A DNA stretch of 1,541 nucleotides from Escherichia coli (GCF_965641715.1 NZ_OZ282461.1); one strand, 5' to 3'. Shown: positions 1-1,541, numbered from the stretch's first letter. Notes: generated from the sequence alone by a model not told the origin. Numbers and translations are program-made.

Positions 1-37
1 GTGCTCAATGTGGCTTCCGGTTCTCTTCCGCTTCCTC

Positions 38-80
38 GTCGATTCGCTCGCTACGCTCGGTCATCGACTTGCGGCGAGCG
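38..80. other. Hairpin-rich segment resembling what I recall as the primosome-assembly-site (single-strand initiation) region downstream of the pMB1/ColE1 origin
   Basis: Seen in sequence: cttccgcttcctcg (26-39) and ...cgctcgctacgctcggtcatcgacttgcggcgagcgg... parallel pBR322 cttccgcttcctcgctcactgactcgctgcgctcggtcgttcggctgcggcgagcgg (recalled). Dyads gtcgat (38-43) with atcgac (63-68), and cgctcgc (45-51) with gcgagcg (74-80), are preserved despite substitutions. Function is inference. Confidence 0.4.
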
Positions 81-386
81 GTGTCACCTCTCGCATGTTG
101 TCGGTGATCCCGTTGTTGTTCTTTCGGGGATGAGTCGTCAGATAGCCCTTCAAACACGCTCAGAAGCTCTCAGACGCACGAAACGGGTTTTAGATGCCCG
201 TCAGGGCATGGAAGGCGCGAAAAACGCTTACAGAGGCTCTCAGGAGGTCAGGCGCGCCGATACCCCTAACCAGGGGCTTTCAGGTCGCCAGGAACCGCGC
301 CAGCCCCCTGCAAAGCCCATTTGCACGGTACAGGCAGCCACTCGGTTGGTAGGTGGTCGTAGACCGTCGGTGTTACAGCGATGGGG

Positions 387-440
387 GTCTGGGGTTCTCC
401 CCAGACGGTTTCCGGTTGCGCTCAAGGCGCTGCCGGAACC
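387..440. other. Two tandem stem-loops in the GC-rich non-coding region (perfect 8-bp stem at 387-406; imperfect longer stem at 407-440)
   Basis: Seen in sequence: gtctgggg-ttct-ccccagac, then ggtt-t-ccgg-tt-gcgc-tcaag-gcgc-tg-ccgg-aacc. Whether they function as RNA or as single-stranded DNA structure is unknown. Confidence 0.35.
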
Positions 441-576
441 GTGGCGGCTCGGTCGTTCTGGAGATCGGGGAGCAAAAACACGCAAGGGATTTTGAGGCGG
501 CAAAAGAGCAATGCAGGATAGACAATCATGGTCAGAACGTTAACACGTAGCCCCTGATTGTCCGCCTGCCGCTGGC

Positions 577-1056
577 TCAATTTGAAAACATGGCCATGAT
601 TCGGCGCTGAATATCACCGTCTTTGTTGACCAGTGTTTTAGTGACAAACGCCGCGTAGTTTTTAGATGTGTTGTATCCCTTCCAGACTTCATGTGGATCC
701 AGTGCATACGCACAAACCTTACCGGCAACAGGAATTCTGACTAACGCGTTTTTTGATTCTAAGTAGTTGAGCCAGCGCTTAATTGTGCTTCGGCTAACAC
801 CCAATTTATCTGCTAAAAACTGCTGATCGGCAACGACAGCACCGCATGAGGGATCTATGTGCTCAGCTAAAAACGAGTAAAGCGGTATTGCTACAACTCC
901 CTGCTTGTCCTTCGACAGTTCTCGGATCCTTTCCCAGCCCTTCTGATAAACCTGGGTGAATGGGCCGTTATTTTTCGGATCTGGTTCCGATTCTTTGTTT
1001 AATTTTTCCAGTTCTTTTAGACGCTTTTTTCGCTGCTCTTCAGTCCCGATATACAT
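577..1056 (-). CDS. Putative plasmid replication initiator or DNA-binding regulator with a helix-turn-helix motif (RepA-like, as in small cryptic enterobacterial plasmids); 159 aa
   Basis: Seen in sequence: ORF from the track, ATG at 1056-1054 and TGA stop at 579-577 on the minus strand. A GGAG Shine-Dalgarno (plus-strand ctcc, 1064-1067) lies 7 nt upstream of the ATG. The segment ...VADQQFLADKLGVSRSTIKRWLNYLESKNALVRI... (approx nt 736-834) has the pattern of a helix-turn-helix. The N-terminus is lysine/glutamate-rich. It is the only long ORF in the AT-richer block and is preceded by a repeat-rich region. Inference: Rep-like function from motif and context; a vague recollection of pKL1-type 1.5-kb plasmids with a small RepA is not verified. 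Confidence 0.75.
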   Translation of the reverse strand: MYIGTEEQRKKRLKELEKLNKESEPDPKNNGPFTQVYQKGWERIRELSKDKQGVVAIPLYSFLAEHIDPSCGAVVADQQFLADKLGVSRSTIKRWLNYLESKNALVRIPVAGKVCAYALDPHEVWKGYNTSKNYAAFVTKTLVNKDGDIQRRIMAMFSN

Positions 1057-1063
1057 GGTAAAT

Positions 1064-1067
1064 CTCC
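1064..1067 (-). promoter_or_regulatory. Shine-Dalgarno (GGAG) for the 577-1056 CDS
   Basis: Seen in sequence: minus-strand reading is ...gaccgtGGAGatttaccATG, with 7 nt between GGAG and the start codon. Confidence 0.6.
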
Positions 1068-1086
1068 ACGGTCTAATAATGGCTCA

Positions 1087-1115
1087 AATATAAGCTATCA
1101 TAGCTCAAACGTAAA
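1087..1115 (-). promoter_or_regulatory. Putative sigma70-type promoter for the HTH gene (-35 TTTACG, 17-bp spacer, -10 TATATT, read on the minus strand)
   Basis: Seen in sequence: minus-strand reading is catggTTTACGtttgagctatgatagctTATATTtgagcc. The -35 hexamer corresponds to plus 1110-1115 and the -10 to plus 1087-1092, about 30 nt upstream of the ATG. Matching to consensus was done by eye; no transcription start data. Confidence 0.35.
1093..1105. promoter_or_regulatory. 13-bp palindrome agctat-c-atagct inside the putative promoter spacer (candidate autorepressor operator)
   Basis: Seen in sequence: perfect dyad agctat/atagct around a central c at 1099. Its position between the putative -35 and -10 is typical of repressor operators (inference). 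Confidence 0.4.
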
Positions 1116-1131
1116 CCATGATAGGTCGACC

Positions 1132-1153
1132 TAGCTCACACATGCGTGAGCTA
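1132..1153. repeat. 22-bp near-perfect palindrome tagctcacacatgcgtgagcta (10 of 11 dyad pairs)
   Basis: Seen in sequence: the reverse complement differs from the forward sequence only at the a/c pair (1140/1145). Overlaps the first direct-repeat copy. Confidence 0.65.
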
Positions 1154-1182
1154 ACCTTAGACCACGCATGCGTGAGCTAACC
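1137..1182. repeat. Two 20-bp direct repeats (cacacatgcgtgagctaacc at 1137-1156 and cacgcatgcgtgagctaacc at 1163-1182), period 26 bp; iteron- or operator-like
   Basis: Seen in sequence: 19 of 20 identity. The second copy contains a perfect 12-bp palindrome, cacgcatgcgtg (1163-1174). Related half-motifs (g)agcta/tagct recur at 1082-1088, 1093-1105 and 1194-1199. Functional role is inference. Confidence 0.65.
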
Positions 1183-1275
1183 CATAATGCAAGTAGCTAA
1201 AAAATCAATAACTTACAAAATCGCCCTTAAATATCTTTTCTGCTGAAAGTGTTGCGCGAAGCGGAACACTTTTTT

Positions 1276-1299
1276 GGGGTGTCGGGGCGAAGCCCTGAC
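1276..1299. repeat. Left arm of a 24-bp inverted repeat (ggggtgtcggggcgaagccctgac); the arm is also an internal hairpin
   Basis: Seen in sequence: the reverse complement of 1504-1527 is ggggtgtcggggtgaagccctgac, matching 23 of 24 positions. Within the arm, gtcggggc and gccctgac are themselves near-complementary. Confidence 0.7.
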
Positions 1300-1340
1300 A
1301 CAGTCACGTAGCGATAGCGGAGTGTATACTGGCTTATTCC
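1276..1340. other. ColE1/pMB1 bom-like origin of transfer (oriT) with putative nick motif CTGG/CTTA at 1329-1336
   Basis: Seen in sequence: ggggtgtcggggcgaagccctgacacagtcacgtagcgatagcggagtgtatactggctta closely resembles the pBR322/pMB1 bom segment gggtgtcggggcgcagccatgacccagtcacgtagcgatagcggagtgtatactggcttaac, recalled from memory. Established knowledge: the ColE1 relaxase MbeA nicks within CTGG/CTTA. The nicked strand was not determined here. Confidence 0.6.
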
Positions 1341-1457
1341 TCTGCAAGCCTTACCAGCCGTGATTTTTGCCAGATTTCGCGCTCTCCACGTTCAACAGCT
1401 CCATCATGTTTTTGCCGTCCGTTCACCGCTAAAACGCCTCAGAAATCGGGACAGGAT

Positions 1458-1500
1458 GTGGGAATGTCGGACCGCGCACGCGCACTCAGACATTCCCCAC
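1458..1500. other. Stem-loop: gtgggaatgtc (1458-1468) pairs with gacattccccac (1489-1500); the loop carries an alternating pyrimidine-purine tract cgcgcacgcgca (1473-1484)
   Basis: Seen in sequence: 7-bp perfect core gaatgtc/gacattc plus flanking G:C pairs with one bulge. No downstream T-run, so it is not a canonical intrinsic terminator. Confidence 0.4.
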
Positions 1501-1503
1501 CTA

Positions 1504-1527
1504 GTCAGGGCTTCACCCCGACACCCC
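1504..1527. repeat. Right arm of the 24-bp inverted repeat (gtcagggcttcaccccgacacccc)
   Basis: Seen in sequence: partner of 1276-1299 with one mismatch; the arms are separated by 204 bp. Confidence 0.7.
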
Positions 1528-1541
1528 GCATCCGTGCGTAA

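Follow-up and report, generated by a model that had tools for sequence, protein, structure and literature searches.

Content of the window

The stretch of DNA described here, called the window and meaning all of its 1,541 nucleotides, is a record from Escherichia coli (GCF_965641715.1, NZ_OZ282461.1). Judged from comparison with related sequences, it is with a probability of about 0.9 a circular cryptic plasmid of the pKL1 family, Col(MG828) in plasmid typing, present as exactly one complete unit in which base 1541 joins base 1. Its sole gene, repA, codes for a replication initiator, and around it lie putative replication signals and two predicted origins of transfer (oriT), one of the ColE1 type (basis of mobility, bom) and one of the R64 family, neither accompanied by its mobilization genes. 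The features are listed below with coordinates, strand, description and, in brackets, the evidence (ORF, open reading frame; pas, primosome assembly site; IHF, integration host factor).

1-1541, no strand: predicted whole plasmid unit, pKL1 family / Col(MG828) (relatives, junction, head-to-tail copies)
1-495, plus: ORF of 164 codons, not a gene (no Pfam match, flat codon pattern, broken frame)
23-82, no strand: pas-like block homologous to the ColE1 region downstream of the origin (83.6% to ColE1 1367-1308)
100-576, no strand: strongly conserved non-coding backbone (invariant columns, non-coding substitution pattern)
503-563, no strand: palindromic element of 61 nt, also in IncX4 plasmids
577-1056, minus: repA, sole gene, helix-turn-helix replication initiator of 159 aa (ORF, Pfam, pKL1 homology, codon pattern)
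1063-1117, minus: candidate repA expression signals (promoter consensus match only; repeats)
1132-1182, no strand: two tandem 25-nt palindromic units, TAGCTCAC-N6-GTGAGCTA (repeat finding, pKL1 position)
1183-1245, plus: A/T-rich stretch with a perfect IHF-box consensus at 1203-1215 (motif scan)
1246-1275, plus: GC-rich hairpin followed by TTTTTT (fold z = -4.9)
1277-1336, plus: ColE1-type bom / oriT without mob genes (ColE1 identity, nick motif)
1443-1528, minus: R64-family oriT without nikA/nikB (homology, fold, repeats, nick region)
1481-1497 and 1460-1476, minus: arms of the 17-nt inverted repeat of this oriT (15/17 paired)
about 1504-1523, minus: 8-bp repeat of this oriT, identical to that of R64

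In base composition the window falls into two parts, the GC content being about 42-47% between roughly 500 and 1300 and 54-63% in the remainder, or, by module, 43.5% in 577-1272 and 58.3% in 1273-1541 plus 1-576. The first module would be the replicon, made up of repA, a promoter overlapped by repeats, two palindromic operators, an IHF box and a boundary hairpin; the second would be a non-coding backbone of cis-acting sites, with an orphan bom, an orphan R64-family oriT in opposite orientation, the pas-like block and about 480 nt of conserved DNA. Along the plus strand the Rep module (577-1245), bom (1277-1336), the hairpin region (1443-1528), the junction and the pas-like block (23-82) follow one another. 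A first-pass annotation of the window had put the Rep-like module between the bom-like oriT and the hairpin region; this applies to the long arc of the circle only, and the wording was ambiguous.

Completeness and circular form

The source record is exactly 1541 bases long, equal to the window, and its linear opening, between the R64-type oriT and the pas-like block, is arbitrary. In a megablast search at least 80% of the window was covered by 26 PLSDB records and by 31 among complete RefSeq E. coli genomes, nearly all of them complete circular plasmids of 1545-1566 bp typed Col(MG828), with pKL1 itself (NC_002145, 1549 bp) within the set. Individual records compared with the window are denoted by L numbers in the following. 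A junction probe, composed of the last 300 and the first 300 bases of the window, was contiguous over the join from 1541 to 1 in all relatives tested, and its match in L003 (203-792, 95.8%) was interior to the record and away from that record's own origin. For a comparison of eight family members, the window was set beside seven complete circular relatives (1545-1566 bp, pKL1 included), which were rotated to a homologous start. All seven were collinear with the window from end to end, with neither a missing nor a duplicated base at the join, and all closed on GCATC(C/A)GTGCGTA(A/C) followed directly by GTGCTCAATGTGG. The length gap of 4 nt between the window and its closest relative, L004 (1545 bp), is made up of four small indels. 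No terminal overlap or repeat was found at the window ends.

Further copies passed the join in tandem or in permuted form. An ENA metagenome scaffold (L024) contains all 1541 window bases at 99.87% identity and continues head to tail with 1-408, and a head-to-tail copy is likewise present in L018 (96.8% identity). In E. coli L26 a chromosomal copy bracketed by IS26 (L005) runs from 1145 to 1540 and on from 1 to 1152, a circularly permuted order in which 8 bp are duplicated and which fits the expectation for IS26 capture of a circle. In that record (NZ_CP146250, 6001-7573) the entire pKL1-family plasmid lies between two IS26 copies beside a CTX-M-65 region; it is opened within the operator palindromes, the duplicated 8 bp correspond to window 1145-1152, and the arrangement looks like IS26-mediated capture.

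Sequences of this kind are abundant. The exact RepA of the window is listed in 1363 public-assembly blocks, 1217 of which hold only contigs below 2 kb, and relatives of 1.3-1.6 kb number in the hundreds in public collections. Part or all of a record was matched by the window in 1345 of 5426 complete E. coli genomes, mostly via the shared bom/oriT blocks. The proposal of the first-pass annotation, a complete, circularly permuted miniature plasmid with one gene, is borne out by the contiguous junction and the end-to-end relatives, and the nucleotide search against small Col-type and pKL1-like plasmids, in which rotation and synteny were compared, was clearly positive. It had also ranked the molecule among the smallest autonomous plasmids, which is true and not new, pKL1 with its 1549 bp having been known since the 1990s and serving as a textbook example from that time on (PMC12839544).

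The replication module

RepA matches the Pfam family HTH_36 at 28.2 bits (cut-off 25) and, weakly, RepL. It is 78% identical to RepA of pKL1 (E = 4e-94); most of the identity falls in the C-terminal two thirds, the ~45 residues at the N-terminus being diverged. Variable columns are distributed over the three codon positions as 26/20/69 in the eight family members, the kind of distribution that purifying selection on a gene would produce. A coding pattern of substitutions was confined to repA, and further conserved ORFs were not detected, in agreement with the single gene noted earlier. Against rolling-circle initiators of the HUH type no match to Rep_1, Rep_2 or Rep_trans was obtained, the matches being restricted to helix-turn-helix/winged-helix families and the weak one to RepL. 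A search for solved structures related to RepA by sequence yielded none, and NCBIfam gave nothing beyond generic helix-turn-helix matches. For pKL1, autonomous replication dependent on RepA as well as autoregulation and hexamer formation of this protein have been reported (Burian et al. 2003, cited in PMC3832669).

Ahead of the repA start codon, a ribosome-binding site (GGAGA) at a distance of ~7 nt and a candidate promoter (-35 TTTACG at 1115-1110, -10 TATATT at 1092-1087; a promoter scan, consensus match only) are overlapped, in the case of the promoter signals, by two 21-nt direct repeats (1076-1117), and this block of promoter and repeats (1063-1117) is conserved with pKL1. Farther upstream the two palindromic units at 1132-1182 occupy the same position as the perfect palindrome of pKL1 and by this analogy would be RepA operator or origin binding sites. 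Motifs resembling TAGCTCA, seven of ten of which cluster at 1080-1200, reached the number of ten in none of 200 shuffled sequences. The IHF consensus WATCAANNNNTTR occurs once in the window (0.04 expected), and the A/T-rich stretch that contains it, 1183-1245, may by the same analogy be part of the origin of vegetative replication (oriV). In pKL1, oriV lies upstream of rep and comprises, besides an IHF box, a perfect inverted repeat and several sites bound by Rep (PMC3832669); an IHF box, repeated motifs and an inverted repeat are all found upstream of repA in the window. DnaA boxes within one mismatch were absent from the window. The hairpin at 1246-1275, terminator-like, stands at the boundary of rep module and backbone; the equivalent position in pKL1 is also occupied by a hairpin, though of another sequence.

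By analogy with pKL1, RepA would bind these upstream sites, replication would start at the adjacent oriV, and the promoter of repA itself would be repressed; for both initiation and autorepression we infer this from the 78% identity and the matching positions.

Relationship to ColE1 and the orphan bom

In a BLAST comparison only two blocks are shared between ColE1 and the window, 1277-1336 (96.7%) and 23-82 (83.6%). The former is identical at 96.7% over 60 nt to ColE1 1521-1462, CTGGCTTA included, so that the bom-like oriT of the first-pass annotation proves to be a ColE1-type bom. Its nick motif, CTGG/CTTA, lies at 1329-1336 with the nick predicted between 1332 and 1333; we assume this placement from the ColE1 nick position, reportedly a result of Varsaki and colleagues from 2003. 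Cognate mobilization genes (mbeA-D / mobC) were found in the window neither as ORF nor as Pfam match; bom is thus an orphan site and would need Mbe proteins in trans.

The pas-like similarity extends from 1535 over the junction to ~95, and in the ColE1-type plasmid L011 a single gapless high-scoring segment pair runs from window position 1535 through the junction to 90. The spacing of GCGTAAG and CTCTTCCGCTTCCTCG, 21 nt, is common to the window, L011 and the portion of L020 that is of the ColE1 type. The pMB1-like stretch that had been recognized over the window boundary therefore reflects real homology, as the single segment pair of L011 crosses from 1541 to 1. Order and orientation of 23-82 relative to bom are as in ColE1, and the block is probably a primosome assembly site (pas, n' site), ColE1 1367-1308 being what we take to be the pas of that plasmid.

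RNAI and RNAII were absent from an Rfam scan of both strands (E <= 1), the sole match being a chance-level one to proV inside repA. The window is not a pMB1/ColE1 replicon and has only the cis-acting bom and the pas-like block in common with these; its replication would depend on the pKL1-type RepA. A search by eye for MOBQ-like and F-like nick motifs at the junction (GTAAGTGC) and around 350 gave short chance-level matches only.

A side observation concerns four contigs (L020, at ~1053-1112 and 2600-2664, L019, L021 and L025), in which pKL1-like sequence gives way, at precisely the CTGGCTTA nick motif of bom, to sequence of the ColE1/pMB1 type. Similarity to the window ends at 1336, and rop and the mob genes of ColE1 (97.7% identical) are found next to it. 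Two of these contigs come from NCBI genome assemblies. They are either cointegrates formed via the shared oriT, by relaxase or by homology, or assembly chimeras via the shared 60-nt block.

The R64-family oriT and its probable helpers

The second transfer site, 1443-1528, is 95.3-96.5% identical to a site just upstream of mobA (nikA-like) or the relaxase gene in conjugative MPF_I plasmids, among them L012 and the IncK2/Z plasmid L028; in L012, L028, L029, L030 and R64 the homologous site precedes the start of nikA/mobA by ~15-45 nt. R64 itself carries, upstream of nikA, an oriT that agrees with the site of the window in its 8-bp repeat and its nick region. The nick region, CACATCCTGTCCCG, does not vary between the window, R64 and plasmids of the IncK2/Z and IncI-gamma/K1 types, with an arm spacing of 8 nt in all of them. 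CATCCTG/T is situated 8 nt beyond the inner arm and the nick is predicted between 1452 and 1451 on the minus strand, a position which we assume from the literature. In single-stranded form, the minus strand is predicted to fold into a pair of neighbouring hairpins that leave the nick region unpaired (z = -4.7), and it is probably this strongly folding segment that had earlier been described as the hairpin region.

Oriented oppositely, bom and the R64-family oriT both start with GGGGTGTCGGGG(C/T)GAAGCCCTGAC, from which results a 24-nt inverted repeat (23/24; 1276-1299 and 1504-1527) that brackets the region between the two oriTs. The 8-bp-repeat module is common to the two oriT families, that of ColE1 bom and that of R64.

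Neither nikA nor nikB was detected in the window as ORF or Pfam match, the oriT being an orphan copy, and a relaxase of any kind was missing from the ORF list and the Pfam search of the window. As no relaxase is encoded, the plasmid is a 'pOriT' hitch-hiker in the sense of Ares-Arroyo et al. (PMC10123127). The I-complex oriT has been defined by these 8-bp and 17-bp repeat sets, the latter varying among plasmids as part of the NikA binding site (PMC3817090), and with 'oriT_pKL1' listed in the oriT_R64 family (bioRxiv 10.1101/2024.01.30.577996) the element is already catalogued.

Among the small plasmids three hairpin classes were distinguished, each of which keeps 15-17 of 17 pairs and the 8-nt spacing. 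At 11 of the 17 positions of the repeat at least two pair types occur, i.e., compensatory changes. If arms are paired across classes, 9-13 of 17 positions match for the arms of the window, and as many as 16 of 17 for the two other classes that are most alike. The nick-proximal arm of the window and of pSCU-103-7 shows 0 differences from IncK2/Z and L012, that of the pABU type 1 difference from R64 and that of pKL1 2 differences from an IncI-gamma/K1 plasmid, as against 5-8 differences in non-matching pairs. With the NikA-recognition repeat identical to that of IncK2/Z and deviating from the inner arm of R64 at 8 of 17 positions, the matching helper is most likely of the IncK2/Z type.

Two routes of transfer would be conceivable on this basis. 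Via bom, the plasmid would be mobilized by Mbe proteins from a co-resident ColE1-type plasmid together with a conjugative helper; via the R64-family oriT, NikA/NikB and the transfer apparatus of one I-complex helper would suffice.

The conserved non-coding backbone

The most conserved part of the plasmid family is 150-500, where 86-96% of the columns are invariant and the substitution pattern is non-coding. The wider region 100-576 is common to plasmids with other Rep modules (L031, pMG828-1). In 150-500 no Rfam match, recognisable motif or convincing covariation was found. Conserved structure in 205-382 was unsupported, with a positive covariation term and one compensatory pair; fold z-scores near 0 spoke against a G4-type or other single-strand initiation signal in 100-245; and the best match to a resolution site of the Xer/cer type had 8 mismatches, no better than in shuffled sequence.

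The 164-codon ORF at 1-495 was considered as a second gene and rejected. It has no Pfam match and no excess of third-position changes, the variable columns being distributed over the codon positions as 14/20/20 (14/19/19 against a lineage only 84% identical), and its frame is disrupted by 1-nt indels in six of seven relatives and open in pKL1; from the flat substitution pattern together with the frame-breaking indels it follows that it is not a gene. Homologous ORFs are called 'rep protein' in some RefSeq records (L004, 1-585, WP_224706374.1; L031, 349-1008, WP_226908833.1), and these annotations over the GC-rich backbone look spurious.

Segments of the backbone recur outside the family. The pas-like block with window 83-241 is found at 82% identity in the IncX4 plasmids L014 (2424-2639) and L016 (2425-2584, 2893-2993 and 4687-4744), in which up to three copies of the block 26-241 are arranged in both orientations around the replication-initiator gene, and the palindromic element of 61 nt (window 503-563) is present in L017 (IncX4, 2501-2561). 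The blocks shared with IncX4 suggest a common cis-acting replication signal. In L015 (CP088859.1), a 30-kb plasmid otherwise unrelated, direct copies of window 205-382 (178 nt, 82-83%) at 2501-2678 and 3359-3536 flank the ccdA/ccdB toxin-antitoxin genes, one on each side.

Recombinant composition

The window sequence is best read as a natural recombinant, in which the rep module of the pABU lineage (1565 bp) is joined to the backbone of the pJD8/pSCU-103-7 lineage (1546 bp). Over ~576-1260 its identity to the pABU/L004 lineage is 96-100% per 50-column bin, and the window ends are 96-100% identical to the pJD8/pSCU-103-7 lineage. The same combination of rep module and backbone is present in two other assemblies, L024 (99.87%) and L018 (96.8%), which argues against an assembly chimera.

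With L031 (NZ_CP085073, 1506 bp, typed Col(MG828)) the window has only the backbone in common, 1273-1540 and 1-578 at 84-86%, the winged-helix gene of that plasmid being only 25% identical to RepA of the window. Compared with L031 and pMG828-1, the backbone is bounded by the stop codon of repA and the start of bom. As a further observation, plasmids typed Col(MG828) (L031, 1066-1506; L034, i.e., pMG828-1) carry the same backbone under distant or strongly diverged Rep genes, so the Col(MG828) typing marker is probably located in the backbone and not in the rep gene.

A more far-reaching reading, which as a joint claim we consider possible and rather doubtful, regards the backbone as a portable 'hitch-hiking cassette' that moves among Rep modules, its oriT being retuned and its 150-500 core being an uncharacterised cis element. 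The Rep modules concerned might then range from those with a near-identical RepA to one with 25% identity. The 17-nt NikA-recognition repeat might, equally tentatively, be swapped to suit the circulating helper, be it IncI1/R64, IncI-gamma/K1 or IncK2/Z. The core 150-500 could perhaps, as the last part of the same speculative claim, be the real replication or incompatibility determinant of Col(MG828) plasmids. If this were true, the published picture of an 'oriV upstream of repA' would be incomplete.

Alternative explanations

It was considered whether the unit had been cut by the assembler from an integrated or concatenated copy, such as an IS26-flanked insertion or a ColE1-type cointegrate. 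Such forms exist, as the IS26-flanked chromosomal copy L005 and the contigs L019, L020, L021 and L025, where pKL1-like sequence passes into a ColE1-type mob/rop region exactly at the nick motif of bom, demonstrate. The window, however, contains no IS26 or ColE1 replicon sequence and comprises exactly one unit with both ends in register in a source record of 1541 bases; an integrated copy would open at the insertion point with a target duplication, as in L005, and the window has no terminal repeat. Given also that the exact RepA is mostly found on contigs below 2 kb (1217 of 1363 blocks), this origin is highly improbable. A chimera assembled from two related plasmids in one sample would account for the window halves matching different sub-lineages, the near-identical long stretches between lineages (150-600) would allow an assembler to switch, and metagenome scaffolds of the pKL1 family are visibly concatenated; nevertheless, we regard it as very unlikely, since the same combination is found on one molecule in L024 and L018, which apparently stem from other assembly pipelines.

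The order, orientation and junction spacing that bom and the pas-like block share with ColE1-type plasmids, and the position of the conserved 100-576 where a ColE1 origin would be relative to pas, might point to a deletion derivative of ColE1/pMB1, possibly a remnant of a cloning vector, that replicates by RNAII/RNAI. With no RNAI or other Rfam match beyond the one at chance level, nothing but bom and the pas-like block in the ColE1 comparison, and a conserved repA under purifying selection that is homologous to the experimentally characterised pKL1 RepA, this is extremely improbable. That both oriTs are inactive relics of earlier recombination with mobilizable and conjugative plasmids, with vertical inheritance, transformation and transduction as the only ways in which the plasmid spreads, is unlikely: no relaxase or accessory gene is present in the window and MOB-suite labels some near-identical relatives 'non-mobilizable', but all eight family members examined have retained the two sites with invariant nick regions, the 17-nt repeat has undergone compensatory changes (11 of 17 positions) with 15-17 of 17 pairs and the 8-nt spacing retained, and its inner arm tracks specific helper lineages with 0-2 differences. 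Compensation and helper tracking form a pattern not expected of decaying relics. In addition, the orphan R64-like and F-like oriTs of pEC156 are functional (PMC4743918).

The reading as a complete circular pKL1-family plasmid of recombinant composition, replicated by RepA, has to be held against several observations that weigh against one or the other of its parts. The circularity of this very molecule rests on comparison with relatives, and the exact 36-mer across the junction had zero matches in IMG/VR and JGI metagenomes; a gapped pattern specific for the mosaic likewise had zero matches in JGI metagenomes and GTDB genomes. The operator palindromes are wholly unlike those of pKL1, yet the helix-turn-helix region of RepA is ~94% identical, which renders the assignment of the RepA sites uncertain. 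The pas-like block has a predicted hairpin of ~10 bp whose fold z of only -1.3 to -1.7 is not significant. Finally, the replication model does not account for the most conserved part of the plasmid (100-576) and may be incomplete.

Comparison with known plasmids

The plasmid is a member of a long-known family, a type described since the 1990s and very common in E. coli, and its features are already published or catalogued. It represents a near-minimal mobile replicon, one gene with a set of borrowed cis-sites, and the pKL1 family is a clear example of an orphan oriT that follows the NikA specificity of one or another helper plasmid. This bears on predicting which small plasmids, together with cargo acquired through IS26 or cointegration, can be carried along by IncK/IncI resistance plasmids. 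The only points that might repay further work are the oriT repeats matched to helpers and the conserved backbone.

The best-studied relative, pKL1 (NC_002145, 1549 bp; Burian et al. 1997-2003), is likewise a circle of ~1.5 kb with a single repA in the same place, an oriV/operator region upstream of it in matching positional layout, and the same backbone of bom, R64-family oriT, pas-like block and conserved region (94-100% over 1-600). Overall identity is 81.7%; the first ~45 residues of RepA and the entire operator region are diverged, the palindrome being TAGCTCAC...GTGAGCTA in the window and GTTGTCGCATCC...GGATGCGACAAC in pKL1, and the 17-nt oriT repeat of pKL1 belongs to another specificity class with 7 inner-arm differences from IncK2/Z, compared to 0 in the window.

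The closest complete records are the pABU/1565-bp lineage and NZ_CP182202 (L004, 1545 bp), the latter being the best global match (95.4%). Here the rep module (576-1260) agrees at 96-100% per bin, and RepA of the window is 99.4% identical to WP_000275450; the pas-like block, in contrast, reaches 80-90% and the R64-type hairpin 62% in its bin, being of the R64-like and not of the IncK2/Z class, and the 1565-bp lineage has a 21-nt insertion at 563 that the window lacks. The reverse applies to pJD8/pSCU-103-7 (1546 bp), with backbone ends at 96-100% and an identical IncK2/Z-type hairpin, but a diverged pKL1-type rep module of 42-64% column identity over 876-1263. H189 (NZ_CP090002.1, 1822 bp), labelled Staphylococcus aureus, is 95.8% identical to window 315-528 and is probably a mislabelled or contaminant small plasmid of enterobacteria.

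The closest relatives of the window are typed Col(MG828) by PLSDB, for which pMG828-1 (NC_008486, 1902 bp, Col(MG828) in PLSDB) is presumably the typing reference. It shares the non-coding backbone (1272-1541 and 1-581, 92-96%) and is larger; its RepA homologue has diverged much further, with patches of about 70% nucleotide identity, and a small ORF is present in addition.

With the oriTs of R64 and the I-complex (IncI1, IncI-gamma/K1, IncK2/Z) the site of the window has the 8-bp repeat, CACATCCTGTCCCG and the 17-nt inverted repeat 8 nt from the nick in common; unlike in those plasmids, nikA/nikB do not follow, and the 17-nt repeat is the IncK2/Z version. As a lifestyle, a small plasmid without mob genes that carries orphan oriTs for relaxases supplied in trans is known from pEC156 and other pOriT plasmids (PMC4743918; PMC10123127). 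Of the two oriTs of pEC156, one R64-like and one F-like, both are functional (PMC4743918); it is, however, a ColE1-type replicon of 4.3 kb with an F-like second oriT, whereas the window has a RepA-type replicon and a ColE1 bom in that place.

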